From a virus, in the IMG/VR virus record IMGVR_UViG_2922727739_000003, positions 89,210 to 153,209 of that record: 64,000 nucleotides of DNA; one strand, written 5' to 3'. This document shows, one piece after another, positions 1 through 44,433 of the stretch. Under the pieces are notes generated by a model that saw only the letters and a program-made list of their open reading frames with translations, did not search any database and was not told the DNA's origin. Within the stretch, counting starts at the first letter, position 1; each line of letters starts with the position of its first letter. Position numbers and translations under genes: made by a program.

Positions 1-211
1 TAACATTATTACAAAAGTCGTTCTTACACTTATGCAAAATCATGTTGTAATCGCCTCAGTCTGATTTCGTTCTGTTTTTAGTATGGTATCTCAGACGTAA
101 GATGTTGGTCAAATTAATCTTTTATCTAAATTTTTATGTCTTGTTTCATTATAACTATTCAACAATCCAATCTTATCATTATCGTATAGTTATATAAGTT
201 TAAATCAGCTT

Positions 212-1069
212 TTATGTAGTCCCGTTATCCTTCAAATCCATTACTGGTCTTATATTTAATCGTTCTAAAATACTATGTATAAACAATCTTCCTTTTTGAG
301 TCCACTTTGTACTCATTTTCGTTTTTTCTTTACCATCTTTATCTTTGTAACGAAATGTATTCGATTTTGTATAGGCTTTGTGAAAATGATCTTTATATAG
401 CAGCCATTGTCCCCCCTGTTTGTACTGCACTTTTTCAGAATGCAAAATCTTATTTAGCTCTTGAGCAGTAAGTCCGTAATCAGCAGCAATTTGTTTAATA
501 AGTACTGTGTTTTTAGCATTCAATATTGTATCATAGTAGGTTACTTTTGGTTTATTTTCTGCAACAACTTGTTCAAGCATTGTTTTTTCAGTATGTAATT
601 TCTCATTAGCTTCCACCTGTTCAACTAAAGCCAATAACGCTTCCTTGTATGTAGTCGGCAAAACTGGATATTGTTGAACTGATTTATGTACAAACGCTTC
701 AGCTAAAACATCTTTAGCTTTCAATTGATACTGAATTAACTTACTTGCTACTTCTGGTTGATTCTTTTGCATGTTTGGCGTTATTGTGATTTTGGCAAGC
801 CATAACGGTAAGAAATCAATATCTAGTGTCAATATATCCTGTTGTCCACCTTTAGTGGGGAGGACGAAATTTCGTCCCCCTTGATTCAATACTATATCTT
901 CTTTGATTTTTTTTCGTTCTGCCTTTACTTGACCATCTGATAATCCAACTCCTTCACATACCCAGCGAACACCAGCATAAATCTTACCGTCATTCGCTTT
1001 TACCCCTAACAACTCAGATCCGTTAAACTCTACCAATTTTTGTTCTACTACTTGAATATTATTCTCCAA
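212..1069 (-). CDS. Phage antirepressor (N-terminal ANT/P22AR-like domain + C-terminal KilAC domain)
   Basis: FLPLWLAKI N-domain, PTTYKEALLAL linker, KPKVTYYD...TKWTQKGRLFI C-domain. Confidence 0.9.
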   Translation of the reverse strand: MENNIQVVEQKLVEFNGSELLGVKANDGKIYAGVRWVCEGVGLSDGQVKAERKKIKEDIVLNQGGRNFVLPTKGGQQDILTLDIDFLPLWLAKITITPNMQKNQPEVASKLIQYQLKAKDVLAEAFVHKSVQQYPVLPTTYKEALLALVEQVEANEKLHTEKTMLEQVVAENKPKVTYYDTILNAKNTVLIKQIAADYGLTAQELNKILHSEKVQYKQGGQWLLYKDHFHKAYTKSNTFRYKDKDGKEKTKMSTKWTQKGRLFIHSILERLNIRPVMDLKDNGTT

Positions 1070-1137
1070 TTATGCATATCTCCTTTATTTTTCGTCAGGC
1101 AATCTCACCCTGCTAACTCCCTCCCTGTCATAAAATG

Positions 1138-1407
1138 TTATTTAATAGACTTTTCATTCTTCATTGTTCTGGTACTAAGATACAAATTCAATACAAGTAC
1201 ACTACATACTGCTGCTAGTCCAAGTATAATAGTCAGCATCTTAACAGCCACACTCAAACACGATAGCGCTATTCCAATTGACAGAATCGCATAGATCACT
1301 ATGCTTATAGTAATGATCCTTTTTACAAACCACTGCCTATTCATTGGCACTGGCTCCTTCATTCTCATCTTCAGCAACAATTTCTGCACATAGTCCAATG
1401 CATTCAT
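1138..1407 (-). CDS. Small membrane protein (start probably ~1344, MNRQWF)
   Basis: Two hydrophobic helices; ATG overlaps the stop of the upstream gene. Confidence 0.55.
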   Translation of the reverse strand: MNALDYVQKLLLKMRMKEPVPMNRQWFVKRIITISIVIYAILSIGIALSCLSVAVKMLTIILGLAAVCSVLVLNLYLSTRTMKNEKSIK

Positions 1408-1576
1408 TGCAAATACAGGCGTTCTTTGCTGTTACCATTTTATCTACTTCAGATTGACTCTTGCCACAAAATGAGCAACGCAACTCATAATCTCTTTCTG
1501 GAAAAGGGATTAATTCATCGTACTTCCTTGCCTTTTCCATCAACATCATAGCTTCTTGCATAGCACGTGGGTTCAT
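1337..1576 (-). CDS. Stand-alone ClpX C4-type zinc-finger protein
   Basis: CSFCGKSQSEVDKMV...ICNECIGLC matches the ClpX N-terminal zinc-binding domain; GGAG RBS. Confidence 0.85.
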   Translation of the reverse strand: MNPRAMQEAMMLMEKARKYDELIPFPERDYELRCSFCGKSQSEVDKMVTAKNACICNECIGLCAEIVAEDENEGASANE

Positions 1577-1675
1577 AAACCTACCACTCCTTATGTATTT
1601 TTACATTGTAAAATTCAACTTTTATCTTGAGGCGCAACCAAATATTTAGTGGTCACGCCCTCAAATTCAACCCAG

Positions 1676-3697
1676 TCAAAACCTTGGTGTTACTTTTTCT
1701 CTTACAAATTGCTCCACCAACTCAATGTCTTCCGTATGTTTTTTAAATGGCAAAGAACTAAGTACAGCCTCTCTATATGACTTTTTGTGACTTTCACTTA
1801 TCCGAGAATCCAAAATACTAATAATACCTGTATCTACCTCTGATCTAATAAGCCTCCCCGTACCTTGACGTAACTTTATCAGCATCTCAGGAAGTAAAAT
1901 TTCATTCATATGATCTTTTGAATTGTTTATCTTATATTCGGTAATTGGATCATTGGGGACGGGAAAAGGAAGTCTTACTATTATTACTTGGGATAAATCA
2001 GGACCAGAAATGTTTATTCCTTCCCAAAAAATACCCGTTCCAAACAGTACACCTTTACTTTCTTTAAACTCACTTAATACTGATTCTTGCGAAGATCCTT
2101 CTTTTTGTATAAGGATATTCCAATTAACGTCCATTGAAGATAAATTGTCAGTTACATATCTAAGATCCTCTTTTGCAGAGAATAAAACCAGCGTTCTTCC
2201 CTTAGTTAAATCACAAAGATATACGATTTTATCTAAAGCAGCTTTTAGGAAGTTGCTCCTGTTGTCCTCTCCTTTAATTCTATACAAGGGCATATCATTA
2301 GCGATATACATCAAAGCATTATCATGATAATTATAAGGAGAGAACTGTTGCTCACCAAATACCCCCATATACCCCAATGCTTTTGAAATGTAATCGTACT
2401 TTTCTTCAAGTAACTCTCCCGACTGACACATTGTAGCCGATGTTAAGATAACTGAATTTCTACCTGCAAACAGTCTATCGCTCAAAACATCTTTTATATT
2501 TTTCGGGCAGTAACTAATTTCTACCTTGTTTTTATTTGATTTTTGAGACCATATTAGATGATCTGTCTTAAGATGTCCTAAGACTTCAAATAGAGTATGG
2601 AAATTTCTTAGATCTTGCAACAAATCATCAATTTGTCTTTCTTTTTTGCCTGTATCGTCGAGCAAAGATGTAGAGGTAATTAATTCTTTCGTAATTTCAG
2701 CTAACTTCTTAAAATCGATTGTAGTGAGTGGTGATATAGCATACCTTTCAGACTCTGTTACTCCAAAATCCGAAATTTGTTTTTCAATTAATTCGAATAA
2801 ATTATCCACATCCTTTAAAAGGAGGGCTATATTCTTCATGTGAGTATAAACACCTCTAGAATCAAGTAATCTCGAAACATTCCCTATAGACCACTTTACT
2901 TCTGATAAATTGAATGTAAGAGTTAATGCACTTCTAACCTTCTCTTCGAAATTATGAGCTTCATCAATTACTGTCAATGCGCTATTGCTTGTTATAAATC
3001 CTCTTCCTGTTTCATACTTTCGAATTAGATCTCTAATTAACAAATCTTGATTTACTACAATAAAATCAATTTGCCAAGAATCAGACTTTATTAAATTTCT
3101 CATCTCATAGAATTCACATGTATTTCTATAAGTGCAATTTTCATAGGTGCATTTTTGTACAGCAACCCTATTCCAATCTTTATCTTGTATACTAAAAGAT
3201 AAATCACTTCTTTGTTTTACCTTTCCAGAAGAAATTGCAGAAACTAAAGTTTCAAATAATTGATCTTCATTTTTCAATAAACCCATTTCAATTATCTTTT
3301 CCGTTCTCTCTTGGCATGGATAATTCCCCATCCCCTTGCCGATAACTGCTTTAATGTTATCAAAACCCAATTTTTGAGAGATATCATTTATGTCTTCAAA
3401 AATTTGCTCAGACAACTGGATTGAGGAAGTTGCTATAACGATAGGTCTACCGATCATTTTGTTGATAAACAGCGAGGGAATCAAATACGCGTATGACTTT
3501 CCAATTCCAACACCTGCTTCAATTATCAAGTTATTATCGTTGATAAATGCTTCTGCTATGTCCAATGACATATTTTCTTGACCTTCCCTAGGATGCATAC
3601 CATACTCTTCGATATTCCCATATATTTCGAAAATCTGATTTATAAGAATAGGTTCTAATCTTTTCTTAGATTGATGTCGATTAAATAACCAAGAAAT
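1676..3697 (-). CDS. dinG: DinG/YoaA-family ATP-dependent helicase (ATG at 3598; frame open to ATT at 3697 behind a GGGGGAG RBS)
   Basis: Walker A EAGVGIGKS, DEAH, Fe-S cysteines, TSAT, FWEGI, RLPFPVP, QGTGRLIR motifs. Confidence 0.88.
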   Translation of the reverse strand: MSWLFNRHQSKKRLEPILINQIFEIYGNIEEYGMHPREGQENMSLDIAEAFINDNNLIIEAGVGIGKSYAYLIPSLFINKMIGRPIVIATSSIQLSEQIFEDINDISQKLGFDNIKAVIGKGMGNYPCQERTEKIIEMGLLKNEDQLFETLVSAISSGKVKQRSDLSFSIQDKDWNRVAVQKCTYENCTYRNTCEFYEMRNLIKSDSWQIDFIVVNQDLLIRDLIRKYETGRGFITSNSALTVIDEAHNFEEKVRSALTLTFNLSEVKWSIGNVSRLLDSRGVYTHMKNIALLLKDVDNLFELIEKQISDFGVTESERYAISPLTTIDFKKLAEITKELITSTSLLDDTGKKERQIDDLLQDLRNFHTLFEVLGHLKTDHLIWSQKSNKNKVEISYCPKNIKDVLSDRLFAGRNSVILTSATMCQSGELLEEKYDYISKALGYMGVFGEQQFSPYNYHDNALMYIANDMPLYRIKGEDNRSNFLKAALDKIVYLCDLTKGRTLVLFSAKEDLRYVTDNLSSMDVNWNILIQKEGSSQESVLSEFKESKGVLFGTGIFWEGINISGPDLSQVIIVRLPFPVPNDPITEYKINNSKDHMNEILLPEMLIKLRQGTGRLIRSEVDTGIISILDSRISESHKKSYREAVLSSLPFKKHTEDIELVEQFVREKVTPRF

Positions 3698-3860
3698 ATA
3701 TATCTCCCCCTGTTATACGCAATTAGTTTATATTATATCATGTTACCCAATAGAGAGAGAACATATGTACGAGAAAAAATAAGGTAAAATAACTGTTTCA
3801 TTAGATTTCAATTTTTAAATGATTGAGTGGTATCCTTACTCTTTTCATATCCTCGTAACT

Positions 3861-4334
3861 TTACTTTATTTCTTTAAGTAATTGATTATTTTTAAGAAAT
3901 CCGCACTTATCATAAAACAATTTTAGTTCTTCATGTGTTATACCCCCACCTTCTCGCATGTATCCTGTTACTTTCGTTATTCTGTCGAATTTCACTTCAG
4001 TTGAATTCTTGTTATATTCCTCCACTTTAGCATTGTAGATATGGATAAGTTCTAATAAAAATTCTAGCATAATTCTGCCATGACCAATTCTTCTTATCCG
4101 TGAATGAATTTCTTCAATAATAAGTTCGTCTTGAAAATAAGTAAAATCTAAAAACGAAGGTTTTTTCCACTTACTATACTTTAATTCTATCTCTCCTGAG
4201 CTTCTAAATAATTCAAGTCGACCAAGGTCAAAAGTTACCTCTACTTCATTAGGGGGAATTGCCCTATCAAATTTTCTTAGATAATAAATATGTTTGCCAT
4301 TTATCTCTATTATTCTACTCATAAGTTCCTCCAT
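3861..4334 (-). CDS. Possible GNAT-fold acetyltransferase
   Basis: RRIGHGR acetyl-CoA-binding-like motif and FYDKCGF C-terminal motif. Confidence 0.55.
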   Translation of the reverse strand: MEELMSRIIEINGKHIYYLRKFDRAIPPNEVEVTFDLGRLELFRSSGEIELKYSKWKKPSFLDFTYFQDELIIEEIHSRIRRIGHGRIMLEFLLELIHIYNAKVEEYNKNSTEVKFDRITKVTGYMREGGGITHEELKLFYDKCGFLKNNQLLKEIK

Positions 4335-4408
4335 GCCTTCTGGTAAAGTTTGTATAGAATTCTTTCTATGATTTTTCTTTAAAATCCTGCTTTTACTGAA
4401 GCTTTCTT

Positions 4409-4672
4409 TTAATCTTCAGTTTCTTCCACCTCACCAAATATAACCTTTACTTTGCGGCGTTTAAGAGCCTCTTCCATCATCTGAGAAGTAACAAGAACCA
4501 TTTTTTCATCAGATGGAAATACAGGTCGTACATGCAAAGAAAGATTAGAAAAAAGCTCAATTAGGAACTCTACTTGTTCTTTTGGCTTCCAATCCCGACT
4601 GTAACGCTCCCGAAAAAACTCCGAGATAGCGCCATCCATTTTCATTTCTTCTGACATAGAGTATCCCTCCAA
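4409..4672 (-). CDS. Hypothetical protein
   Basis: ORF with RBS, co-oriented in the array. Confidence 0.65.
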   Translation of the reverse strand: MEGYSMSEEMKMDGAISEFFRERYSRDWKPKEQVEFLIELFSNLSLHVRPVFPSDEKMVLVTSQMMEEALKRRKVKVIFGEVEETED

Positions 4673-4723
4673 GTGATTAGCTTAATCTCCACTTTAGTAA
4701 AGAGAAGATTGCGCCCCCCTCAT

Positions 4724-4927
4724 TTAGTTTCGGGTATATTTTCGAAGTAATTTACTAACTTGATCTTCCTTACAAAGACCTTGAACCATCAGTCTTGTTC
4801 CTGTCCCAGCTTCAACTGACTTAATTTTTGTGATATACATTTTCTTTCCCTCGACATCGATCAAATCTCCAATAGATACCTTATCGGAGACCATAATATC
4901 GAAGCTTACTGATTTGTTATTTGTCAT
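4724..4927 (-). CDS. Hypothetical protein
   Basis: GAGGAG RBS, 67 aa. Confidence 0.7.
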   Translation of the reverse strand: MTNNKSVSFDIMVSDKVSIGDLIDVEGKKMYITKIKSVEAGTGTRLMVQGLCKEDQVSKLLRKYTRN

Positions 4928-4960
4928 CTATAAACTCCTCATGAAATACTGTTTATCAAC

Positions 4961-5155
4961 TTAATTTTCTACATTATAACTATCGATGAAATCCTTTGCT
5001 TCCTGAAAAGTACATGCTTCCCACTCATAAGAACGAATACCTTTGCCATAAGCCCATTCTTCTGCTGTATACACAACAAACAATGGCGATCCCATAGTAA
5101 TATCTTGCGTCTCGTGGATTTTAAAACCTTTATATTGTTTTACCTTTGTAGTCAT
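4961..5155 (-). CDS. Hypothetical protein
   Basis: GGAGG RBS, 64 aa. Confidence 0.7.
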   Translation of the reverse strand: MTTKVKQYKGFKIHETQDITMGSPLFVVYTAEEWAYGKGIRSYEWEACTFQEAKDFIDSYNVEN

Positions 5156-5179
5156 CTTGTTTTCCTCCCACCATGATAA

Positions 5180-5812
5180 TTATCTTTCTTTTAACCAATT
5201 TATAATGTAATTTACTTCGGTATGATTCAAACTTCTCTTCCCAGCCTCAAACTCATCTATAAATTGAATTAGGTTGTCTTTATCGCTTTGTGTCTTGGTT
5301 TGCTTTTTACTTATTAAAGATTTTATGTAGTTAATTTGTTTTTCGTTAGCCTGTTTCCCTTCAATTTGATTGTCCTTATTTTTCAATAATATCATAATTC
5401 GTACAACAAATTCCCAATCCATTCGCTTTATGGCATCTTGATATAAATCATTCAATAATTCTTCAGGTTGTTCAGGCTGTCTTATTTCCTCTTGTGAAAC
5501 TTGAGTCTTAGTTTTTGGTTGCTTTTTTGATTCAAGTTCATTTAAATATTTAGTCAGTTTGTCCTGTATTCCTTGAGACTCCACAATTTTAAGCAATTCA
5601 GATTCGTCTTTAATGATAACACCAGCTCCTCCACAGCCATAGCAAGTTGATCCATCTTTAAGGTTAAAGGAGTATCTTCCACTTCCTCCACAACGTTTGC
5701 AGGCTGGTGCTGCTCCAGTTGCTATTAAACGTTTAAATAGCCTCCCTTTGTTCATATCTTCAACTTTCATAGCCTCAAAAATTTGCTTCTGGATTGAGGA
5801 GAATGTTTTCAT
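5180..5812 (-). CDS. Protein with DnaJ-type CxxCxGxG zinc finger
   Basis: CKRCGGSG and CYGCGGAG; start set at ATG 5812 after GGAGG. Confidence 0.7.
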   Translation of the reverse strand: MKTFSSIQKQIFEAMKVEDMNKGRLFKRLIATGAAPACKRCGGSGRYSFNLKDGSTCYGCGGAGVIIKDESELLKIVESQGIQDKLTKYLNELESKKQPKTKTQVSQEEIRQPEQPEELLNDLYQDAIKRMDWEFVVRIMILLKNKDNQIEGKQANEKQINYIKSLISKKQTKTQSDKDNLIQFIDEFEAGKRSLNHTEVNYIINWLKER

Positions 5813-5859
5813 GTCGAACCTCCGTAATATCTTAATCAAATACTGTTTTCATAGATTAT

Positions 5860-6099
5860 TTACCGATATTGAGATAGACTTAAATACTCTATTTCCTCAA
5901 GTGCTTCAATGTTAGCTTTAATACAGTATATGGATGGAGAAGTTTTCTTGAATAATGGCTTATGATTGGCCATTGCCACAGCACATTTATGTGATGAGTT
6001 GTATAACTTAGCGTATTCTGGGCTTTCAGTATAAAAGATTTTACTTCTGTGGATGCTCTTTACATACCCTTGGTTTGTCTTTATAACATAAACATTCAT
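5860..6099 (-). CDS. Hypothetical protein
   Basis: GAGG RBS; lies between two 18-bp repeats. Confidence 0.65.
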   Translation of the reverse strand: MNVYVIKTNQGYVKSIHRSKIFYTESPEYAKLYNSSHKCAVAMANHKPLFKKTSPSIYCIKANIEALEEIEYLSLSQYR

Positions 6100-6244
6100 T
6101 CAAAGTCCTCTTTCTGAATAAAATCGTTGTTTTAATTGGTTACAATACAATGTTTCTATCTTCCGATACAGTGTTGCTTTCTTTGTTAAAACTATTATAT
6201 CATCACTTATTGTATTTATCAATATTCATTATATTTAATTATAT

Positions 6245-6277
6245 AAAAAACTGAGCCTGCCATTAGACTCAGTTTTT
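6245..6277. terminator. Intrinsic terminator
   Basis: aaaaactgag...ctcagttttt hairpin with A/T tracts on both sides. Confidence 0.7.
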
Positions 6278-6284
6278 AGTATTA

Positions 6285-7349
6285 CTATTTTAATTCCACT
6301 AATCCATTTTTGTCTTTCGTGTAAGTCCGTCCCAGTGCTTCTTTTTCTAAAACTGCACATTCTCCCGTATCATTTATATTGACGCCACTGAGAACTATTT
6401 TTCGAATTGCTTTAAGGTTTGATTCTAAAGCCATTTTACTTTTCTTTAGCTTGCTAATAGTTCTATCTTTCTTGCCGATCTCTACTGTTTTAGCTTCCAA
6501 TTCTAACTCTTTAAGTTCTAACTTATGCTTAATTTCTCTTGTTTCGAGTTTTAATTGACTAACTTTCAATTCTAGCTCTTTTATCGAATTCATATTTTCT
6601 AGAAATCTATTTATTTCAAAGTGAATTTGATTTAATTCAGTTTTGTTTTTTTCATTTGGATTTTCTAGTTCTGTTTGGTGAATTTCTTGAGATTGTTTAT
6701 TGAAATAAACTAAATTATTTGTCGTTATATAGTTCTCTAATGATCCATGCTTCTTGGTAACATTTCGATACTTCTGATAAACTGCTTGAGGATTCTTTTT
6801 AAGTGCCTTCGCTGCTATCCTAATTGATTCCATTTTACTATTCCCGTTTTTTCTTTCGTCATTAAATATGTTGTTTAAGGTGAGAACATCTTCATCTGTC
6901 CAGCCCCCAATTATAATCTTTTTTTGTTCATTGGTGGTGTCTTCCTCTATATTTAATAAATAATTTCTTACTTCCTTTGCTATATCGCTGTCACGTAACA
7001 ACATTCCAATCCTCAGCACAGATCTTCTTGTGAACACATTAATCATTTTTCTTGGAATAACCAATACTGAATTGTTTTCAGTATTAAAATCTACCGCATC
7101 TTTTCCTTTTAACATTAACATACCATCGCTTAAAAATTCGTCTCTTTGTTTCTTTATAATTTGTTCTATAACATTTTTATCTACTTCATAATATTCTGCT
7201 ATCATTTTTGCTGTTACATGTTTATTGTTTGGCAACATAGAAAGTACTTTTACTTTATCAAGCACTTCTATTCGATTTATGTATTTATTTCTGATGCTGC
7301 AATTCTCAGAAGTAGTAAAACTCTCATCATATAATTTCAGTATTCCCAT
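6285..7349 (-). CDS. Phage DNA-binding protein (KilA-N/ORF6N-like N-domain, coiled-coil C-terminus)
   Basis: TAKMIAEYYEV...FTRRSVLRIGMLLRDSDIAKEVRNYLL pattern; coiled coil. Confidence 0.65.
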   Translation of the reverse strand: MGILKLYDESFTTSENCSIRNKYINRIEVLDKVKVLSMLPNNKHVTAKMIAEYYEVDKNVIEQIIKKQRDEFLSDGMLMLKGKDAVDFNTENNSVLVIPRKMINVFTRRSVLRIGMLLRDSDIAKEVRNYLLNIEEDTTNEQKKIIIGGWTDEDVLTLNNIFNDERKNGNSKMESIRIAAKALKKNPQAVYQKYRNVTKKHGSLENYITTNNLVYFNKQSQEIHQTELENPNEKNKTELNQIHFEINRFLENMNSIKELELKVSQLKLETREIKHKLELKELELEAKTVEIGKKDRTISKLKKSKMALESNLKAIRKIVLSGVNINDTGECAVLEKEALGRTYTKDKNGLVELK

Positions 7350-7376
7350 GTTTATTCTCCTCCAAATTTCATTTAT

Positions 7377-7553
7377 TTATTTATAAGATTCTATCAATGC
7401 TTCAAGTTTCATTATTTCAGGCTTTTGTAGTGGCTGCTTATCGTTAATAAATAGCGAGAATAAAGAATTACTTATTGATAATTTAGTAGCAATAAATGAT
7501 TTCTTTATCCCTCTTTCGCTTATTAACATAAGAGTTCTTTCTCTTAGCGTCAT
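7377..7553 (-). CDS. Small XRE/Cro-like HTH protein (58 aa, not in ORF track)
   Basis: MTLRERTLMLISERGIKKSFIATKLSISNSLFSLFIND...; GGAGGTG RBS and TTGACT-17-TATAGT promoter. Confidence 0.75.
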   Translation of the reverse strand: MTLRERTLMLISERGIKKSFIATKLSISNSLFSLFINDKQPLQKPEIMKLEALIESYK

Positions 7554-7738
7554 GTGTTCACCTCCGTTAAAAAATATTTTAATTATCTCTTGAGATTACT
7601 ATATCATTCACAATTCTTTTAGTCAATATGTTTCATTATATTTATTTGTATAATTATTTTAGTTTTTCCCTCAACAAAAAAAACTAGACATTTCTGTCTA
7701 GTTCGTAAGTGGTAATAAAAGTAACAATTTATCAATTT

Positions 7739-8443
7739 CTATTCCGTGAATATTATCCAATCCTTAGTCACCCATTGAATAACCTTAGCAAATCTATTTT
7801 CATCGAAATGAATAAATTTTTTATTATACCATTCGGTTAATTCCTTATCGTGTTTACTGCTATTGCATTCTTTACAAGCTGGAACACAGTTGTCAATAAA
7901 ATTGCTGCCATCGTGAATAACATGATCTCTATGTAGTTGTTGTCCATTAACTGCGAAATGTATTTCTTGAGTCATATCGCAATAAGCGCATTTCCATTCA
8001 AAATACTCTAAACATCTACTCCACTCATCTTGGGTGATTTCATGAGACTTATTAAATCTTTTCTGTCTATAGAGTTTTAATTTATCCTTATTTTTTCTTT
8101 GCCAATCCCGCAATAGTCCATTTTCTCTTCTTTTTTTCTCAGACAGCCGCCTTTTTTCTTTATTCTGGGGCTTATCATTTCTTTGCTTTTGGAATGTTAG
8201 GGTCTTTTCATAATTTTCTTTATTCCATTTAGTTGAATTACTAATATTGCATTGTTTGCATTTTGGATTTAGGCCATCTTTTTTATTGCTCGGGTTTTTA
8301 TAGAAATATATTTCATTGCAAGGATACCACTGATTACAATTGGAACATAATTTTTGTTGTTCGCCTTCAAAAAATCTATGACTATCTTCAAAACTTATTC
8401 GCTTTCTATCTCGCAAAACAATTACTCTCGCTTTCTTAATCAA
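7739..8443 (-). CDS. HNH endonuclease
   Basis: CAYC...HRDHV...NCVPACKECNSSK; N-terminal CxxC pairs. Confidence 0.88.
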   Translation of the reverse strand: MIKKARVIVLRDRKRISFEDSHRFFEGEQQKLCSNCNQWYPCNEIYFYKNPSNKKDGLNPKCKQCNISNSTKWNKENYEKTLTFQKQRNDKPQNKEKRRLSEKKRRENGLLRDWQRKNKDKLKLYRQKRFNKSHEITQDEWSRCLEYFEWKCAYCDMTQEIHFAVNGQQLHRDHVIHDGSNFIDNCVPACKECNSSKHDKELTEWYNKKFIHFDENRFAKVIQWVTKDWIIFTE

Positions 8444-8444
8444 A

Positions 8445-8690
8445 TTAAAATTTTACATTATTGTTCTCAATCCCAAACCTACTTTTAAGCCAAAGTGGTC
8501 GCCCCTCAACCAATGCATCTGGACGTGGAAATGTACCTCTATACCCGTCTTTTAATGCGCTCCGCGCTGATTTCCCTACACTCTGCTTGGTTGTCCCAAG
8601 GTGGCGAGATAACCAAGCACCGTCAACATACTGGAGGGGCACTGTTACTTTTTTTCGACGTAGATAGTGTTGCCGTCTCCATCTTCCCAA
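8445..8690 (-). CDS. Small putative DNA-binding protein (true start likely downstream)
   Basis: Helix-turn-helix-like segment followed by FPRPDA...GRPLW. Confidence 0.5.
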   Translation of the reverse strand: MGRWRRQHYLRRKKVTVPLQYVDGAWLSRHLGTTKQSVGKSARSALKDGYRGTFPRPDALVEGRPLWLKSRFGIENNNVKF

Positions 8691-8887
8691 CCGTTCACAT
8701 CCTCGCCAGAATCAAGGTCTGTGATAATCTGTGCTTGGTTTTCTAAGTCTGCTGGTGTGATGGTGAATAGTGTTTCTCCGTCTTGCATAACCTCAAATTG
8801 GTGCAGATCGTGATCAAAATCAACTTCCACAACTTCGTAGCCTTCGCGCACCCATGTTTTCATTGTAATCCATCCTTTCGTCCGCAT
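8645..8887 (-). CDS. Hypothetical acidic protein (start likely MKTW)
   Basis: AAAGGA RBS; locally higher GC. Confidence 0.65.
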   Translation of the reverse strand: MRTKGWITMKTWVREGYEVVEVDFDHDLHQFEVMQDGETLFTITPADLENQAQIITDLDSGEDVNGWEDGDGNTIYVEKK

Positions 8888-9116
8888 CCGGTTTCTCCGG
8901 CTTATCGGTTATGTATGTTCGTCCCTTGCTGTGATTTAATAATAACATATAAGGTTTACTAAGTAAACCGAACATTATAAGAACATAATGTAACAATAAT
9001 ATGAATACGTTTCTGTGTTTTAAATTTATTATATAAAAATATTATATTGTTTAGAACTTTTGAATTTTTTGATCTAGTCTTTTTTTAATAAACAAAAAAC
9101 AGCCCTTAAAGGCTGC

Positions 9117-9305
9117 CTAATTGATTACTATATGTGATGCGTTTGCCACAGTTGCAATAGCTCCAATAAGTTTTTGCATAACAGCAAACGCCACATTGGC
9201 AACATGCTCCGAACTAGTGTCAGGATTTTGAAAAGAATAAATAGCGTACCCTAGAAATGAACTAGCTCCCAAAAGATCAAACCAGTTTCTTGTGTTCAGT
9301 CTCAT
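9117..9305 (-). CDS. Small membrane protein
   Basis: AGGTG RBS, hydrophobic, downstream terminator at 9094-9116. Confidence 0.55.
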   Translation of the reverse strand: MRLNTRNWFDLLGASSFLGYAIYSFQNPDTSSEHVANVAFAVMQKLIGAIATVANASHIVIN

Positions 9306-9445
9306 TTAATTCACCTATGCCTTTTTCCTAATTATAACATATGGTTCAATATGATGTACAATCTATGTAAAAGACTGATTTTATACACAACTCATTTTTC
9401 ATGATATTACTTTGACATGAACAAGGAGCGGGAAACCGCTCTTTG

Positions 9446-9676
9446 TTAACACTCCTCATCCTCTTCTTCAAGCTCTTCTTCTTCGTTTTCTTCTTCCTCA
9501 TCTTCGTTAGGGTGTATCAAATTATATATTTCTTCTTGCTGGCAACTGCGACAATATGTGCCAACGTCTCTCTTTAATTCGTTATCAAATACAGTTGTAC
9601 TTCTGTTTGATCCGCAGTCACCACATGAATCGTCGTCGTTATCTTCAAGTATGTATTTGCCGTATCTCTCAGTCAT
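9446..9676 (-). CDS. Small zinc-finger protein with acidic tail
   Basis: CGDC/CRSC pairs, poly-Glu C-terminus, AAGGAG RBS, terminator at 9424-9443. Confidence 0.65.
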   Translation of the reverse strand: MTERYGKYILEDNDDDSCGDCGSNRSTTVFDNELKRDVGTYCRSCQQEEIYNLIHPNEDEEEENEEEELEEEDEEC

Positions 9677-9898
9677 TTAAATGCTCCTTCTATGTTTTAT
9701 TTTATTGTAGCATGATTACGCCATATGGGTGGAGTGATATACCGCACAACTAATAGACTCTTTTATTATTGCAATAATGCCTTAATCAGAGGAATTATAA
9801 ATATACATTACTATGGATAAAATTATCATTAAATTCGTGTGATATAATTTTTATTTTGCATATTCATACATTTGTATCTATGTAAAACAAGAATTTTA

Positions 9899-10177
9899 TC
9901 AAAAATACATTTTATTTTTCCAGCGTTTAAACGTACAGAAACCATGTTTAATTGTTGGCAATTCATAATAATACTTGTATAAATCAGTTTCACTGTAATT
10001 ACTCTTTAAAACAGTTTCAAATGCTTGTTTACGTCGATAAAATTTCTCTTCTCCCATAATTTTCATAGTATCGTTCGGACGCAATAGAAAATTCTCAGCT
10101 ATCTTTATCATACTTTCTAAGCTTTTATTTCTGAAATAATTAATTAATTTACTATCTTCCTTAGTAATAGTTTGCAA
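9899..10177 (-). CDS. Hypothetical protein (TTG start 10177)
   Basis: GGGGG RBS before TTG; flanked by 18-bp repeats. Confidence 0.6.
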   Translation of the reverse strand: MQTITKEDSKLINYFRNKSLESMIKIAENFLLRPNDTMKIMGEEKFYRRKQAFETVLKSNYSETDLYKYYYELPTIKHGFCTFKRWKNKMYF

Positions 10178-10238
10178 GGTAAACCCCCCTTGTTTTTTCA
10201 GTAAAATCACTCTTTTATTCTGTTTCATTATCATCTAA

Positions 10239-10505
10239 TTAAATAGAGATACTATATCCGTCAAAATTCTTCATTAATTTATCAGTAATATATTTACAAT
10301 CATTAAAATCTTCATTAATCCAAACCGCCATCTCATAGCCACCCCCAACAGCGCTAATTACAGCAATGTCCGAATCAAATTCATTAATTATTTTCACACC
10401 CATAAATATAGTTTCACCTAATTCATTTTTCAAAGTGAATCTAAACATATCGTCTATCTGTGACTCTTGAATTATCAGTGCCAACTTTTTAAAATCCTCT
10501 TTCAA
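10239..10505 (-). CDS. Hypothetical protein
   Basis: Coupled to upstream ORF. Confidence 0.6.
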   Translation of the reverse strand: MKEDFKKLALIIQESQIDDMFRFTLKNELGETIFMGVKIINEFDSDIAVISAVGGGYEMAVWINEDFNDCKYITDKLMKNFDGYSISI

Positions 10506-10756
10506 AATTCACACCGCCTTTGCAACCTAGTTGTTTTATTCATTATTCTCCACCACGTTGTTTCAGATCGATTGCCTTTTTCATCTTCAAGAAGGAATTT
10601 TATTGTTTTACCTGAATCACTAATAGTAATACTGACAACTTTTCTAACATTCCTATCAGCAACTTCTATTAGGTCTCCTTTTTCAATGTCGCTCAAATAA
10701 ACTTCTTCCATTTCATTGTTTGATTCAGTTGATTTCATATTTACATTCCTCCTCAT
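10502..10756 (-). CDS. Hypothetical protein (start likely MKSTE)
   Basis: GAGGAGG RBS. Confidence 0.65.
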   Translation of the reverse strand: MRRNVNMKSTESNNEMEEVYLSDIEKGDLIEVADRNVRKVVSITISDSGKTIKFLLEDEKGNRSETTWWRIMNKTTRLQRRCEF

Positions 10757-10777
10757 AAAATGAGTATTTTAAATTAA

Positions 10778-10897
10778 CTACATACGAGACATTGCGACTT
10801 TTAATGATTGTTCATTGTCTAAATACAAGGATCCATTATTCAAGTCTACCTCAACATACTTTCTGTTGATGATTAATCTCTTCAGGAATTTCAGCAA
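10778..10897 (-). CDS. 39-aa hypothetical protein (not in ORF track)
   Basis: AGGAGG RBS, TTG start, TTGAAT-17-TATAAT promoter. Confidence 0.5.
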   Translation of the reverse strand: MLKFLKRLIINRKYVEVDLNNGSLYLDNEQSLKVAMSRM

Positions 10898-11017
10898 TGT
10901 CGTCGCCTCCTATGTATTCAACTTATATATTTATTATATAATATAATTTCATTATATTCAAGTGTTTGTTTATTTTTATATTTCAACTTTTTATTTAAAC
11001 CCAGTAAAATATCAGTT

Positions 11018-11221
11018 TTACAACCCTTTAGACTTAATGTATTGATAATACTCCTCAAACGACTTATATCCTCCACGCTGCTTATACTGTATGTATTGTT
11101 CCAATACAATTTGATTAAATTGCTTTGGAGTTAATTCAGCAGGATCTATAATACCCTGTAAATAGTTCCAATATAGCCGCGAGACGTTAACAGGCTTTTT
11201 CTGAGGCTTTTTCTTTCTCAT
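11018..11221 (-). CDS. Hypothetical basic protein
   Basis: GGTGA RBS; stop codon lies within an 18-bp repeat. Confidence 0.65.
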   Translation of the reverse strand: MRKKKPQKKPVNVSRLYWNYLQGIIDPAELTPKQFNQIVLEQYIQYKQRGGYKSFEEYYQYIKSKGL

Positions 11222-11257: not shown

Positions 11258-14200
11258 TTAATTTGCCCTTGCTGTTTCCCCTTCAAGCTTATCAATGACA
11301 ACTAATACTGTGCTGACCCCTGTTCCTGATTCCTTAAACGATCCATCTGGAAGCTTTTCATAATAACCCTTGTCATTTAGCCAGTTACGAAAATGAATAC
11401 TCTTGGCATCACTAGAAAATGTCCAATGTGGCGACATAATAGCAATTAGTTTGCCACCTTCCTTAAGGCAATCATAAGCCTTTAGCACATGATCAACGTC
11501 CTTACTTCTTTCGAAGGGTGGATTCATAATTATTTTTTCATACTTGGTAAATGGCATAAATTCTATAAAATCATTAGCAACTAGTTTGTATTGTTTTAAC
11601 TCAAGAATCTTACGTAGTGTAAGATTCCACTCAATACCGTGCAATTCTGCATTTAGGTTATTGTCTTGTATATACTCATTTACACCGTCTAAAATATTAC
11701 CGTTGCCTGCACTTGGTTCTAAAATGGTTTCACCATCTTGTAGGTCAGCCAAGTCAATCATACGTTGCACAATAGCTCTGGGTGTTGGAAAGTAGCCGTC
11801 AATTTTATATAACTTAACTTCGCTTTCCATTTTCTTAATTTCACGCTGGACTGGATTCACTGGTTTCTCAATGGCCTTTACAAGTTCAGCATATTTATCT
11901 ATTGCTTCATTATATTGCTCAGTATTATATATTCCTGCTTTGTTCAATCGTTTCTGCATTTTTGGTACTTCTTGATTCCACCAGCCATTAGTATCGACAT
12001 TAAGATTGACAACGGGATATTTAATTTCGGTATTATATTTGCTTCGCGAACTATGTTTAATTCTCATATCTTCCCTAAAGCTACCCACCAATAGAGCTAT
12101 GTCGTATTCGTCCATTGTACTACTAGTTGCTTTTTCTTTTAGATATTTCAGAATACTAATTTCTAAGTTCAAACTACCTTTTTTCTGTTCTCGGCTTGCT
12201 GCTTCTTGCTGGCGTTTCCATGTGTTAGTCTGATAGTCACCAGACAAGGCATTCAATTTCTTTTGTGCTGACTCGATTTGCTTATCTATCTTACTGGTAT
12301 ATTGTTGCTGATCGCTATTTTTACTTTTCGTTTCTTCTTGTAAAATTCGTCTTTTATCATTATTTTCATTCGTGATTAATAGTTCATCCTTGCTAATTAA
12401 ATATGCAACAAATCTTTTGGCCTCATCTAGTCGACTAGTGGTTTTTAGGTTTGTGTCTACTTCTTTCCCATCCTTAAAAATACGATACATTCCCCACGAC
12501 TTAGCAATCATATAACCCTTGTGAGTGTATACTCTTGTTGTCTCTGTATAGCCAGCTACGGTGATTTGCTTACGATCTATCTTAAATTCTGGTATTTCTA
12601 CAACTTCATTGACTTCTTTATCTAATCTTTCTTTTTCTAATTGGAAAATTCTTGTTTTGAATTTATCCATACGATTATCAAACTCTTTTTTCATATCCGA
12701 AAGCTGACTTAACATATTCCCATATCTGTCTTGCATTTTGTTATAACGTTGAACGTTTAATCCACCTCGACCAGTAACAGCCCATGAAGGGTTATTGGCG
12801 CGATGATTGAGTATTTTAATGTATTGTTTATAATAACGCTGCTTAAAGGATTGTAAGTACTTTTTAATTTGGTATTGAAGATATTCATTGTCTGTTTGCG
12901 ATAGTACATTTAGAGCGGTTTTTTGGAGTTCGTTAAATGTATTGAAACAATCCTTTTTATAGTCTACCTGAAACAGACTAGATGAATGTAAACGTGATTG
13001 TAATTCATCTGAGACAATGTACATGTGAAGGTCATCAATAGTAATGTCTTCATACGCTGAAATACTAGCAGCTCCATTGGATTCGGTATTGTTTTGTTTG
13101 TTATAGTCTGCTTGCAGTGAACTTGCTAATTGATCTGCTTTATCTGACTGTCTAGCATACCAAAACCCACGTTTAGACCATCTAAAACCATAAGCTTTAA
13201 GTTGTTCAATAATATTGCTTCCAGGTTTTGACGGGAAACGGATCTCAATACCTTGCTTCTCATTGTTGTATGATACTGCTACTTCAGCAGACACATTTAC
13301 AGCTTCATCGTTTTCCTTTGCCTCTTCTGTAGTTTCGATTGCTGGAACATTAGAAACAGTTTGTTTTCTTGCCGCCTTCTTGAATACTGTTTTTTCTTGG
13401 TATTCTGTAACCTCTTGCAAAGTGTGTACTTTAACAGTGCCTTCTTCCATACCTTTGTTTAATCTATCGAGTGTTTGATAATAGCGCTTAACACTCATAC
13501 CATTTAGTCGTTGATAGCCTCTCTTTTCACTACCCAAAAGTTCGTAGGTAACACAGGATTGTGCTTTTGAGTTTGTGTAAATGTCAGTTACTACCCAATA
13601 ATGCCCATGATAAGAAAAAGACAATACATCATTAACATTAATAGTTTTATTTTCTTTTTCAACCGGTTTAATAACTTTCTTTTCTACTTTGACAACTTCA
13701 GGTTTTAAAGCATCGACATCAGTTAAAACATTTTCGATTTTCTTAATAAATTTCGCGAGTTTCTCAGCTTTTTGCTGCTTCTCGGTCTTCTCTTTGTTCT
13801 CCCAATCATAGTCATTGACTGAGAATACCCCTTTACCCTTCGCAATAATCTGAGCATCTTTTTCAATGTGCCAGCTTGTCCCACGTGGATTCGCAAAAGA
13901 GAATATGGGGTACGTCTCTACGACTTTATACTTTTCGATTGCCCCAACCTTTTCCTTCTCTTTTTCAATCAATACAGCACAAGAAGCTTTCTCATTTTCT
14001 GACGACGCTGCATCATTCATCATAGCCTCAAGTTTTTTAATACGGTCGTTAGTTTTATATACAGCATTGCCACCTATGTATTCTTTTTGTTCATAGCCAC
14101 TGTAACGTGTATTATTTTGATCGATGCAAAGAACATAGCCGTTCTTTTCAGCAATACCATCCCAATCGGCAGGACTAAAGTAATCTACCATTGCGTCAGA

Positions 14201-20178: not shown

Positions 20179-21288
20179 CTACCTTTCCTCCTTTTTATTA
20201 ATTAATTTTTTAGCTTCTCTTTGCAGCATAATTTTAATGGATTCACTTTGCTTATTAATTATTTGCAGCAATTCTTCTTTGTTCAGTTTTTCTAAGATAT
20301 TTTCATCTATATCTTCTAACATTCGAATGCCTGCCATATTCGCATAATCTTTATCGTCAGACAAATAGTGTTTTAGTGATGCATAGTTTGAATGCCCAAG
20401 TTGACTTCTAATCTCCTCAATATCTCCACCAGTCTCTTTTATGTAGTTTGCTGCTACGTTTCTAAAACTGTGGAAAACTATGTTTCTATCCTCAGAGATA
20501 TTCATTTCAGCTCTTAAATTTTTCATCATCGCTAAGATTGTATTATCTGACAAATGGAATACATAGTTGTCATTATATTTTTTATAGTACGCCTGCTCCT
20601 TTATTTTTAACATCTCATTGTATAAGTCAGGAGATAGTGGACGAGAATGCTTTTTATTTCCCTTGCCAATAATCTTTACAATATAGTTTTGACTATTTGG
20701 ATCTATACTTATGTCTGACCATTTAATATGTAGCAAACTTGATTTTCTGAAGCTCGTTGTATACGCTACCCTTATTAGTGTTGCTTTTTCCTGCCCCTTT
20801 TTTTGTTTCATTGCCAATTTTGCCATTGTCTCAGCTTCTTTTACTGTTAGCTTTCCATAACTTTCTCCATCGTCAGGAAGTTTATCCAGACGAACATCTT
20901 CTGCTCTTACGTTATATCTGTTTCGAGACAAGTGCTCATACAATTTGACAATCGGAGCTACTAATGAATTTACGTAGTTATTCCCATAATCATAATCGTC
21001 CAACAAATGAGCCTGATATCTAATCATTCGCTCATTTAAGATATCTAGGTCTTTTACTTCTAAATCCTCTATACTTTTTTTTGCATGCCACATAAAGAAT
21101 CTGCGAATCGCAACTTCATAGTTATAACGTGTAGTTTTACTTTTTCTCTCAACCTTCATCAGATAGGCTGAAACACTTTCAAATACTCTGTTAGTATGTA
21201 ATCCAACTACATTATTAGTCGATGCTACGCTCATCTTGCGCAACCCCCTTTCATCTTTGTACATATTATACATCATACATCTATACAA
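20179..21288 (-). CDS. Tyrosine recombinase family protein, SPbeta YopP-like (start likely MSVAST)
   Basis: R (FRKSS), K (GKGNK), HSFR, LGH and HY catalytic pattern; C-terminus resembles YopP as recalled. Confidence 0.85.
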   Translation of the reverse strand: MYRCMMYNMYKDERGLRKMSVASTNNVVGLHTNRVFESVSAYLMKVERKSKTTRYNYEVAIRRFFMWHAKKSIEDLEVKDLDILNERMIRYQAHLLDDYDYGNNYVNSLVAPIVKLYEHLSRNRYNVRAEDVRLDKLPDDGESYGKLTVKEAETMAKLAMKQKKGQEKATLIRVAYTTSFRKSSLLHIKWSDISIDPNSQNYIVKIIGKGNKKHSRPLSPDLYNEMLKIKEQAYYKKYNDNYVFHLSDNTILAMMKNLRAEMNISEDRNIVFHSFRNVAANYIKETGGDIEEIRSQLGHSNYASLKHYLSDDKDYANMAGIRMLEDIDENILEKLNKEELLQIINKQSESIKIMLQREAKKLINKKEER

Positions 21289-24429: not shown

Positions 24430-24753
24430 ATGAATAAAACAGAATTGGTAAAAGCAATTGCAGAAGCAACAGGTTATACGAAAAAGGATGTAGAAGCTGT
24501 AGTTGAATCAACATTTGCAACTATTACAAGTGCATTGGCTAGAGGCGAAGAAGTTAAGATTGCTGGCTTTGGTACATTTGAGATTCGTGAAACTGCTGCG
24601 CGAAATGGTGTCAACCCTAAGCTACTCGCAGAGCTAAAAACGCAAGGTGTAGATGCTGAAACAGCAAAAGCACAAGCCACTATTGCAATTGCCGCATCCA
24701 AAAAACCTGCATTCAAAGCAGCAAAAGCACTTAAAGAGCAAGTAAAACAGTAA
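24430..24753 (+). CDS. hup: HU family DNA-binding protein (YonN position)
   Basis: MNKTELVKAIAE...GFGTFE...KKPAFKAAKALKE. Confidence 0.93.
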   Translation: MNKTELVKAIAEATGYTKKDVEAVVESTFATITSALARGEEVKIAGFGTFEIRETAARNGVNPKLLAELKTQGVDAETAKAQATIAIAASKKPAFKAAKALKEQVKQ

Positions 24754-24782
24754 TTTTATCTTAATTATACATAAACTAAAAC

Positions 24783-43431: not shown

Positions 43432-44433
43432 ATGAGCAAAAAAGAAGTAAAAAAGAATACTTTGCGCGAACCAGCTAAAAAGCAAGCCGAAGTCACAGAT
43501 GATATGTGGCAGCAAGTCAATGAAGATTATAGATTTAATGCTGAAGAGTTTGTTTCTGTGCAGGATCTTTCCCCTCAATCTCGCAAACAATACACGAGTG
43601 TAATTAGGCAGTTTGGGTGGTACATGGTTAACTCTATGAACAACAAGCCATTTTACAAAATTACAAAGAGAGACTTTCTTCGTTACCTAAGCTATATACG
43701 CGACAATAGAAAAATGTCCTCGTCAGCAATCAGTTTTAGAAAGTCTGTCATTTCAAGTTTTTGTAATCATATAGAAAACATCATCGCAGAAGAAGATGAA
43801 AACTATAAGAGCTTCCGAAATTTCACTCGTGGCCTCCCTTCTATCGCCAAGAATCGCGTTTATGAAAAAATTAAGGTTACTAAAGATGAATATGACATGA
43901 TGATGAGCGTTTTAGAAGAAGACGAAAACTGGCTTGGAATGGCTTGGTTGGCTACCGCTTTTAGAGTTGGTGCGCGACGATCAGAGATCATTCAGTTTAA
44001 GACTGAAATATTGGATTATGAAGTGTCGGATGACAAAAATTATATTATGACCCACAACGTAAGAGGTAAAGGAAAATCAATCGACGGAAAGCCAATTCAA
44101 TATATGATTCCATTAGACGTTATTCCCCATCTGAGAAAATGGGTTGATTCTCGTGGCTATGATAGCGAATATATTTTTACTACTAAATACGGAAATGAAA
44201 TTAAAGCGATGTCTCCTGCTTGGGCAGATGACTTTTGTTCTAATACCCTCTCTGATATTTTAGAGCGTAGGGTTAATGTTCATATTTTCAAAAATTCATG
44301 TATCACATATCTCCTTGAAAGTGGGAAAGATATTAAGATAGTCTCCAAGTTTGTGGCGCATCATAATGATATTTCCACTACCTCTATTTATGACCTGCGT
44401 GATTTTGAAGATGAGAAAAATAAGATTTTTTAA
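43432..44433 (+). CDS. Tyrosine recombinase family protein (YomM-like)
   Basis: GARRSE (R), RGKGK (K), HIFK (HxxK in place of HxxR), AHH, TSIYD (Y). Confidence 0.88.
   Translation: MSKKEVKKNTLREPAKKQAEVTDDMWQQVNEDYRFNAEEFVSVQDLSPQSRKQYTSVIRQFGWYMVNSMNNKPFYKITKRDFLRYLSYIRDNRKMSSSAISFRKSVISSFCNHIENIIAEEDENYKSFRNFTRGLPSIAKNRVYEKIKVTKDEYDMMMSVLEEDENWLGMAWLATAFRVGARRSEIIQFKTEILDYEVSDDKNYIMTHNVRGKGKSIDGKPIQYMIPLDVIPHLRKWVDSRGYDSEYIFTTKYGNEIKAMSPAWADDFCSNTLSDILERRVNVHIFKNSCITYLLESGKDIKIVSKFVAHHNDISTTSIYDLRDFEDEKNKIF

Follow-up and report, generated by a model that had tools for sequence, protein, structure and literature searches.

We show that a 165-kb SPβ-like prophage carries 92 copies genome-wide (45 perfect and 47 with one mismatch) of an 18-bp palindrome, RT[A/C/G]AAA-N6-TTT[T/G/C]AY, located chiefly in intergenic DNA, and that the contents of the slots between these sites are swapped among relatives between unchanged six-base cores. 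The window analysed in detail is a 64,000-nucleotide stretch of this prophage. We regard it as very likely that the sites are exchange points, have good confidence that the enzyme acting on them is a tyrosine recombinase, and name YomM as that enzyme tentatively. Taken together, the sequence comparisons lean towards a reading in which the sites are positional addresses, where a phage tyrosine recombinase, likeliest of the YomM type, would exchange DNA between two phage genomes whose cores match. We give an even chance to the broader proposal that SPβ-like and related large Bacillota phages share a genome-wide address book of 20-100 same-arm, different-core sites that would be read by YomM, with accessory genes, nip included, traded slot for slot without scrambling.

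Under this proposal, slots would follow one another along the phage arm in a fixed order, with the sites as their limits and a core unique in its genome at each boundary, the arms serving as protein-binding half-sites and the core as the overlap region. A single crossover at a shared address between co-resident phages, such as a prophage and a superinfecting phage, would exchange all DNA past that point, and a second crossover at another address would reduce the exchange to a single slot, much as a cointegrate forms and is then resolved. Deletion and inversion inside one genome would be blocked by the uniqueness and asymmetry of the cores, and slots would be gained or lost through rare joins of unlike neighbouring cores.

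Phages exchange unrelated genes with clean joints at gene borders, and how they do so has long been asked; the usual answer is illegitimate recombination followed by selection. In the family of SPβ, these borders bear a strict, individually labelled motif, which makes the question testable at the bench in Bacillus subtilis 168. If our reading is true, YomM, a core protein, gains a function, the movement of anti-defence genes such as nip among SPβ relatives is accounted for, and phage mosaicism has a dedicated allele-exchange machine, a form of multiplex cassette exchange that exists in nature and has escaped notice in a model phage. Engineering, too, would gain a useful tool in a recombinase that discriminates among dozens of 18-bp sites through their 6-bp cores.

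Sites in the window and across the prophage

The earlier note had listed 12 sites between 108 and 11021, all of which we recovered where it had placed them. Five fit RTAAAA-N6-TTTTAY perfectly (1608, 9367, 9882, 10201 and 11004), six have one mismatch and one (5835) has two. Across window positions 1-12500, 0.05 perfect matches were expected and 6 were found; when up to one mismatch was allowed, 1.14 were expected and 14 were found. Neither count was reached in any of 200 dinucleotide shuffles, and the enrichment, for which the note had proposed a check, lies far above chance. Only a spacer of six behaves in this manner, other spacers from 2 to 12 giving 0-1 perfect matches in the same region. 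The limits the note had set to the array do not hold, as the genome-wide count shows; the left arm of the genome holds 81 of the 95 scored sites. The sites combine inverted arms with a 6-bp core that is almost never palindromic, in keeping with tyrosine recombinase sites, whose asymmetric cores measure 6-8 bp. In the portions of the literature searched, including those of the SPβ review (PMC8270828), PMC10516654 and bioRxiv 2021.11.22.469490 and 2020.05.06.055103, we found no description of the motif, and blastn of window positions 1-8000 against GenBank phages returned three short matches only.

Conservation of the individual cores in nine relatives varies from site to site. TTAATC (108..125) and TAACTG (3784..3801) recur in all nine, TCGTTG (6118..6135), CAAGAA (9882..9899) and TCACTC (10201..10218) in eight, TGAGTA (10755..10772) in seven, TACTGT (5835..5852) and GTAACA (7715..7732) in six, and TTCAAC (1608..1625) and TATCAG (11004..11021) in five. 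TCCTGC (4379..4396) is found in three of the nine, with TCCTGT in G005, and GACTGA (9367..9384) has no identical counterpart in any of them, its one-mismatch form GACTGG occurring in two (G002 and G003). Beyond the 12, we noticed a site with core TTAAAA at 8439..8456 (3/9 relatives: G006, G007 and G009), a second match at 9898-9915 overlapping the site at 9882..9899, and perfect sites within a 1019-aa ORF (12340..12357, core in 2/9 relatives), 3' of an HU-like gene (24742..24759, CAGTAA, 5/9 relatives), 14 bp past the yomM stop (44447..44464, CTATCC) and ahead of tail genes (60695..60712, TTCCAA, with TCCCAA in relatives).

All 12 listed sites lie at gene junctions, given shorter starts led by a ribosome-binding site at 5835, 10201 and 10755. 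The reported overlaps with stop codons are also borne out: the stop at 11018 falls inside the site at 11004..11021, whose arm provides the TAA of ORF 11018-11221, and the stop at 9899 shares one base with its site. Placement between stop codon and ribosome-binding site might suggest a role at the RNA level, with the palindrome forming a small hairpin that serves processing, termination or translational coupling. We consider this extremely unlikely, since 84 of 268 perfect sites have A-C as their outer pair when read on the minus strand, which is the arm's coding strand, the arms vary independently and a loop would need no uniqueness within each genome.

Cores are unique, ordered and conserved

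No core is duplicated within any of the source prophage (G000) and its relatives G001-G005, against 3.8-5.9 duplicates expected per genome. Palindromic cores number one across 10 genomes, where about 20 are expected, and pairs of cores differing at one position are fewer than expected in 10/10 genomes. Comparisons of identical cores, made with no filter on flank or position, gave 68 shared cores between the source prophage and G001 (5.1 expected), 29 with the distant G006 (3.7 expected) and 28 between SPβ and phi3Ts (1.0 expected), and in each case every one was collinear (68/68, 29/29 and 28/28). The order of shared addresses is fixed in 15/15 genome pairs, with at most one exception each. 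Across genera, shared addresses do not exceed chance (source prophage and SPβ, 1 against 2.0 expected; source prophage and E3, 4 against 2.2).

The neighbourhood of an address is far less constant: among 147 addresses common to at least two of six genomes, 84 have both flanks unrelated in some genomes. In same-core pairs with neither flank homologous (n = 1000, 96 cores), identity at the degenerate arm bases, measured at four positions, was 0.54-0.62, against 0.48-0.58 for random pairs; these bases are thus near random, and identity is restricted to the core. Where one flank is homologous, the core is identical in 131/151 and 138/155 junction pairs, and junctions joining unlike cores are few, about five distinct cases. 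A strict four-gamete test was passed by 1 of the 147 addresses; its power is low, given only six genomes and a wide variety of flank types.

The earlier note had read the array as integron-like or Tn916-like, with single-gene cassettes that excise as circles, re-enter any site and tolerate unlike cores. An arm TAA that is the stop codon of the upstream gene (19 of 104 sites) and the handful of unlike-core joins would suit such an array. Its entry, exit and reordering of cassettes are contradicted by the fixed order of shared addresses, also in the unfiltered comparison, and by the lack of duplicated cores flanking a slot. An integron integrase is likewise absent: the two recombinases in the window score 32.5 and 33.6 bits against the TIGR02249 cut-off of 265, and the XerA, XerC and XerD models outscore TIGR02249 on both, all under their cut-offs. 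Core tolerance of the Tn916 kind fails as a rule, being confined to the unlike-core joins. The contig of the source run showed no slot circle, skip or joint, contigs being prone to drop rare forms. As the main route, an integron-like array is largely refuted, and we consider it very unlikely overall.

Slot contents are replaced at site edges

The slot between TTCAAC and TAACTG illustrates the replacement. In the source prophage it holds a DinG-like helicase gene (1676..3598, minus strand; Pfam Helicase_C_2 and DEAD), and the unit is replaced whole between the same two sites, with different genes in G001, G002, G003 and G005. In this respect, the claim that sites bracket whole units stands for DinG-type units; that these are single genes does not, as slots frequently carry several. 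The anti-defence gene nip is located in a slot, that between cores GATAGT and TATTTA, and no detected sites bracket the gene of Gad1 (phi3T_128, PDB 8U7I).

That gene content changes at the sites, as the note had supposed, is supported by where homology ends. At junctions that bear a site, 90 of 154 alignment ends fall no more than 12 bp from the site centre, where permutation gave 33 (and at most 55 in 2000 rounds), and near-identical tracts end at sites in 92 of 418 cases, against 6.4 under a uniform null. Contigs from two further runs (X4 and X5) depart from the reference at site edges: at 124 and 125 (X4 and X5), at 3802 (X5), 5849 (X4), 9384 (both), 9899 (X5) and 11022 (X5), with the DinG-like gene present in both runs as far as the site edge. 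An RNA run (X3) gave scattered contigs only. Breaks also occur elsewhere: 248 of 387 arm alignment ends lie away from any recognised site in both genomes, and a break is also present at 57 of the 104 site-less junctions. In one-sided pairs, far-arm identity was 0.65-0.80, against 0.48-0.71 for random pairs, which implies that some breaks fall outside the core.

The sites might instead bind a regulator or DNA-organising protein and be kept by selection, their neighbours being replaced via illegitimate or homologous recombination. Such proteins would account for dyad symmetry and intergenic position, and the many breaks at site-less junctions would then be unsurprising. Dyad-binding regulators usually leave the spacer free, whereas here the spacer is more conserved than the degenerate arm bases, and its uniqueness and non-palindromic sequence would go unexplained. 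Homology also drops to background (0.27) from the first base past the right arm, and a separate promoter-linked repeat in these phages fits a repressor. In favour of a regulator are MrpR/SroF, a recombinase fold serving as a mere repressor in SPβ-like phages (PMC10516654), and phi3T-SPβ laboratory hybrids, which cross over within ordinary homology (our comparison and bioRxiv 2020.05.06.055103). On balance, we judge a regulator site improbable. We had considered four such hybrids as direct proof of crossover at the sites; they are unsupportive, since of 19 switch intervals 11 are short, site-free stretches and the remaining eight are long identical tracts beyond resolution.

Candidate enzymes

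The source prophage has the hallmark genes of SPβ-like phages, namely YomM, YopP and YonF homologues and a serine integrase, the last serving integration. The best candidate for the exchange enzyme is the YomM-type tyrosine recombinase (43432..44433, plus strand; 57.5% to SPβ yomM), with the catalytic set R183-K213-H284-x-x-K287-H310/H311-Y320. R-K-H-K-H-Y is kept in 79 of 80 yomM loci; in the SPβ branch, Lys replaces the second catalytic Arg, a residue present in the homologues from Kirov, 949 and c-st. YomM ranks first in conservation among the proteins, or trails the first by no more than one point, in 7 of 8 comparisons, and a site adjoins the gene end in 41 of 78 loci, with 13 different cores. 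The yomM genes of G035 and G028, with 11 and 44 sites respectively, have frameshifts that may be sequencing errors. Among solved structures, YomM matched XerD and an archaeal XerC-like protein best, and XerH was not among the hits; the literature searched yielded no papers on YomM. A second candidate is the YopP-like Int1 (20179..21288, minus strand; Pfam PF00589; 28% to SPβ yopP), a protein of the tyrosine-recombinase fold that keeps R, K, H-S-F-R/K, H and Y (H-S-F-R in the source prophage), shows 44-93% identity among G001-G005 and is found in 31 of 32 YomM genomes.

The motif is also carried by SPβ, with 34 TAAAA-N6-TTTTA sites, and by phi3T, Kirov, Tsamsa and E3, and all 32 YomM genomes exceed their own control counts (11-84 sites against 1-9), with a TGAAA arm variant in G006-G009. 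The association between YomM and the motif is loose. Sundance has a recombinase in the YomM position, yet 0 sites, and a search of 50 kb of its genome for a co-varying dyad found none; Lactococcus phage 949 has 7 sites, G025 has 3 strict ones, and c-st has 31 with a distant YomM-like protein only. The LC76P1 stretch consists mostly of structural genes.

This imperfect tracking would suit a different mechanism, in which a phage nuclease cuts the interrupted palindrome to leave a six-base, site-unique overhang and a ligase or Sak4-like protein joins matching ends of two genomes. Cutting and annealing would explain unique, asymmetric, conserved cores equally well, and the source prophage encodes a Sak4-like protein, a Gam-like protein, RecJ, a Holliday junction resolvase and a ligase. 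However, of the proteins common to it and at least three of SPβ, phi3Ts, E3, the Staphylococcus phage and Kirov at our tblastn cut-off, none is a nuclease or annealing protein, whereas all three tyrosine-fold proteins are included. Some 90 cuts in its own genome would presumably also demand tight control, and we consider this mechanism unlikely.

Comparison with known systems

Heterospecific lox/FRT cassette exchange uses shared arms with different asymmetric spacers, recombines only matching spacers and avoids self-deletion; it is engineered and has 13-bp arms and 8-bp spacers. The phage sites would be a natural, genome-wide version. Integrons resemble the phage system in that small genes are bounded by short sites, and in attC the stop codon is often inside the site. 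They differ in that the phage system has no IntI, no reordering and no single entry site, and its 18-bp sites, with unrelated flanks between copies and no compensatory pairing, cannot form the attC type of fold.

In our best reading, the exchange would work like that of pdif modules in Acinetobacter plasmids. According to PMC13141974, the accessory genes of these modules are flanked by sites whose spacer measures 6 bp, crossover requires identical or nearly identical spacers, and single modules are replaced between unchanged spacers, a process modelled as cointegrate formation and resolution. Retention of the 6-bp spacer across module replacement, which marks pdif and dif modules, is likewise seen at the phage sites. 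The pdif sites differ by their distinct 11-bp XerC and XerD arms, alternating orientation, spacers that recur in one plasmid, the occurrence of excision and inversion, and reliance on enzymes of the host. The phage system has symmetric 6-bp arms, unlike those in Table 1 of that source, with about 90 sites, every core unique, order fixed and a phage as carrier.

The difH/XerH system of Helicobacter and Campylobacter (PMC3325230) has A-rich inverted arms at a unique 6-bp centre (TGAAAA-6-TTTTCA, near the TGAAA arm variant mentioned above) and a single recombinase. It differs in having one 40-bp site per chromosome for FtsK-dependent dimer resolution, without cassettes. PeSL elements of T4-like phages (PMC2839356) are repeated intergenic elements where non-essential genes shuffle; each is a promoter-terminator cassette, and their recombination inside one genome gives rise to mini-circles. 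The phage sites have 18 bp, probably too short for a promoter and a terminator, with unique cores and no within-genome rearrangement seen.

Finally, the SPβ operator SPBRE is likewise a repeated intergenic element of this phage family, and a protein with the recombinase fold binds it. It occurs at about ten promoters, with SroF binding a 24-bp operator as a monomer (PMC10516654 and bioRxiv 2025.11.27.690993). The separate promoter-linked repeat is a likelier candidate for the SPBRE counterpart than the 18-bp sites.

Distribution of the sites

The window corresponds to C1:89210-153209 of a complete provirus of 164,715 bp (G000) carrying SPβ-type genes; the closest named homologues of its tyrosine recombinase YomM originate from Paenibacillus. 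All twelve sites that an earlier note had placed at 108-11021 are present as written. Within window positions 1-12500, the 18-bp motif RTAAAA-N6-TTTTAY occurred 6 times perfectly and 14 times with at most one mismatch, against shuffle expectations of 0.05 and 1.14; none of 200 dinucleotide shuffles matched these counts, and spacers of 2-12 other than 6 gave background levels only. The whole genome holds 45 perfect and 47 one-mismatch sites, with 81 of the 95 scored sites located in the left arm. Under a relaxed definition (n = 104 arm sites), 85 sites lie at junctions and 19, mostly weak matches, within ORFs, and the TAA of the site arm forms the upstream stop codon in 19 of the 104. The half-site consensus is RT[A/C/G]AAA. 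One perfect site (12340-12357), shared with G004 and G005, lies inside a 1019-aa methyltransferase-like ORF, where domain exchange could be possible.

We compared nine prophage relatives, namely G001-G005 (83-88% mean identity) and G006-G009 (~70% over 21-30 kb). Each of G001-G005 carries 40-49 perfect sites, while G006-G009 have few perfect sites, 66-73 sites of the relaxed form and more common TGAAA arms. The shorter form TAAAA-N6-TTTTA occurs 34 times in SPβ (2.3 expected). It is also enriched in phi3Ts (30), E3 (30), Kirov (25) and an SPβ-like phage of Staphylococcus (17); enrichment in Lactococcus 949 is weak (7 sites). Compared with a spacer-7 control, it was found 23 vs 3 times in Tsamsa, 33 vs 9 in FADO, 28 vs 4 in phi36 and 31 vs 5 in c-st. 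In a wider survey of 32 further records of at least 110 kb, drawn from 80 YomM loci, every record exceeded its own reversed-pattern control (11-84 vs 1-9; weakest 11 vs 7). The site system is real, family-wide and far more ordered than first proposed.

The core as a probable address

Site pairs between genomes shared an identical 6-bp core in 131 of 151 cases when only the left flank was in common and in 138 of 155 when only the right flank was, compared to 151 of 166 with both flanks in common; for ambiguous pairs the figure was 50 of 59. With flanks and positions left unfiltered, all identical cores were collinear between G000 and G001 (68/68; 5.1 expected), G000 and G006 (29/29; 3.7 expected) and SPβ and phi3Ts (28/28; 1.0 expected), and identical-core sharing across genera was at chance level. 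Duplicate cores were absent from each of G000-G005, which are not independent genomes, against 3.8-5.9 expected per genome; ten genomes together contained a single palindromic core (~20 expected), and one-mismatch core pairs were rarer than expected in all ten. Eleven of the twelve originally noted cores recur exactly in 3-9 of the nine relatives, and the other, GACTGA, recurs as GACTGG.

Core order is constant, and the genes between neighbouring cores (slots) differ. For instance, the DinG-like helicase gene (1676-3598, minus strand) filling slot TTCAAC-TAACTG is present only in G000 among six genomes, and also in contigs from two further runs (X4 and X5), where it reaches the same site edge. 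When two sites had the same core but neither flank was related (1000 pairs), identity at the four degenerate arm positions was 0.56, 0.54, 0.62 and 0.56, near the values for random pairs (0.48, 0.49, 0.58 and 0.49), compared to 0.93-0.99 when both flanks were homologous. Exchange therefore preserves the six core bases and not all 18. Given how tyrosine recombinases behave, such core-only preservation would fit an overlap region rather than a regulator spacer or generic microhomology. That the sites would serve addressed exchange is well supported by comparison; its chemistry and enzyme we infer.

Breakpoints and joins between unlike cores

The arm contained 387 alignment ends. Of these, 105 were no more than 15 bp from the centre of a G000 site, where a uniform distribution would put 3.2%, and 139 were close to a site in one genome or the other; starts clustered at the left site edge and ends at the right. 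At site-bearing junctions, 90 of 154 ends lay within 12 bp of the centre (33 by permutation). Of 418 near-identical tract ends, 92 coincided with sites (6.4 expected under a uniform null that ignores junction preference), and the X4 and X5 contigs diverge from the reference at 124/125, 3802, 5849, 9384, 9899 and 11022. Three results count against the site model. Where no site was recognised, 57 of 104 junctions also had breaks; the far arm in one-sided pairs was more alike than chance, which speaks against a break always inside the core; and all four flank combinations were found at only 1 of 147 addresses, with a 4% position filter on pairs without flank homology.

The earlier note held that unlike cores are tolerated, which stands only as a rare event: 23 unlike-core one-sided pairs contained about five distinct real joins. 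Three link neighbouring addresses (CCACTA/CTTGTA, GCATTA/CCACTA and TGAAGA/TTGAAC), two are less clear (CATGCC/AATGTT and ACTATA/CCTACA), and the remaining pairs are at the flank threshold and chance-like. Mismatch joins therefore happen, and slots could be gained or lost that way.

Four phi3T-SPβ laboratory hybrids give the site model no support, as their 19 parent switches lie in short site-free intervals (11) or long identical tracts (8); the hybrid authors report 15 of 16 recombination sites as homologous (bioRxiv 2020.05.06.055103). The natural SPβ-phi3T comparison supports the model on alignment evidence, several near-identical tracts starting or ending at sites (5 of 52 tract ends vs 0.57 expected). 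In SPβ, slot GATAGT-TATTTA contains only yoqT; in phi3T it contains yoqT, nip (phi3T_120 in PMC11984713) and phi3T_121. Identity is 98.5% before, 72.8% within and 93.5% after the slot. Gad1 (phi3T_128, PDB 8U7I, L280:11270-12157) starts where SPβ carries site ACGATA, and phi3T lacks an intact site there. Only 9 of 57 slot genes near the window had a Pfam match.

Relation to known systems

The system is not an integron, contrary to the integron-like array originally envisaged. Closest in working is pdif module exchange, in which the 6-bp spacers must match for a crossover and cointegrates mediate the replacement of single modules (PMC13141974); here, too, the core is kept across gene replacement. 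In anatomy the 18-bp sites resemble difH (PMC3325230). They belong to neither, nor to the PeSL system as described in PMC2839356, and we found no description of them in the literature. We consider them a variant of site-specific module exchange, with the odds evenly balanced on a distinct, dedicated system.

Candidate enzymes

Because G000 encodes a serine integrase, integration presumably does not require any of its three tyrosine-fold proteins. Int3 (C1:75791-76765 = L004:15791-16765), outside the window, lacks the H-x-x-R motif, occupies what we take to be the position of mrpR/yopR, and is probably an MrpR/SroF-type repressor. A second AT-rich repeat (TTTCATTATATTTATTTGT-like), possibly the operator of Int3, lies upstream of operons (26 loose matches in G000, of which ~15 are good copies), at window positions 6224, 7631, 10947, 14513, 16029, 18237 and 21280 and elsewhere. 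The YopP-like Int1 (20179-21288, minus strand) keeps its catalytic set, varies at 44-93% identity among G001-G005 with the motif unchanged, and has no match in c-st.

YomM (43432-44433, plus strand) is the strongest candidate enzyme. Its identity is 88% in G006, 78% in G008, 57% in SPβ and phi3Ts, 59% in E3, 55% in the Staphylococcus phage, 33% in Kirov and 34% in 949, the highest or at most one point below in 7 of 8 comparisons, where terminase reaches 25-35%. Residues R-K-H-K-H-Y occur in 79 of 80 loci, the remaining one being truncated, and c-st encodes a full-length protein distantly similar to YomM (hhalign 96%). TR-TP2, EF5 and CB473P1 showed background site counts and no match to either recombinase query. 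Of 78 yomM loci, 41 have a site after the gene, and these sites show 13 different cores; many of the loci are closely related, however, and many other genes also have a site behind them. Against YomM stand the Lys replacing its second catalytic Arg, the few sites in 949 and G025, and Brevibacillus phage Sundance, with a c-st-type recombinase at the YomM position and 0 sites; co-occurrence of Int1 and YomM in 31 of 32 genomes also counts against singling it out. G000 further encodes Sak4-like, Gam-like, RecJ, resolvase and ligase genes. Frameshifted yomM in G035 (L241; 11 sites) and G028 (L221; 44 sites) may reflect sequencing errors.

Other observations

In Sundance (L277, 70-120 kb), the TAAAA dyad was not found; ~8 of 49 listed gene junctions carry an invariant direct repeat (GCCAAATAAA core), a junction element of another kind in this related phage. 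The terminase (27777-29519) shares 63% identity with its counterpart in Clostridium phage c-st and only 25-35% with those of SPβ, G006 and G008, which suggests an exchanged head module. Three glycosyltransferase genes (39295-42008) within the structural operon immediately precede yomM, and 16638-17291 has a weak APOBEC4-like deaminase match (E 3e-4, below cut-off). The tail region contains a RelE/ParE-like gene (56225-56581) and a PAAR-motif gene (62691-63143).
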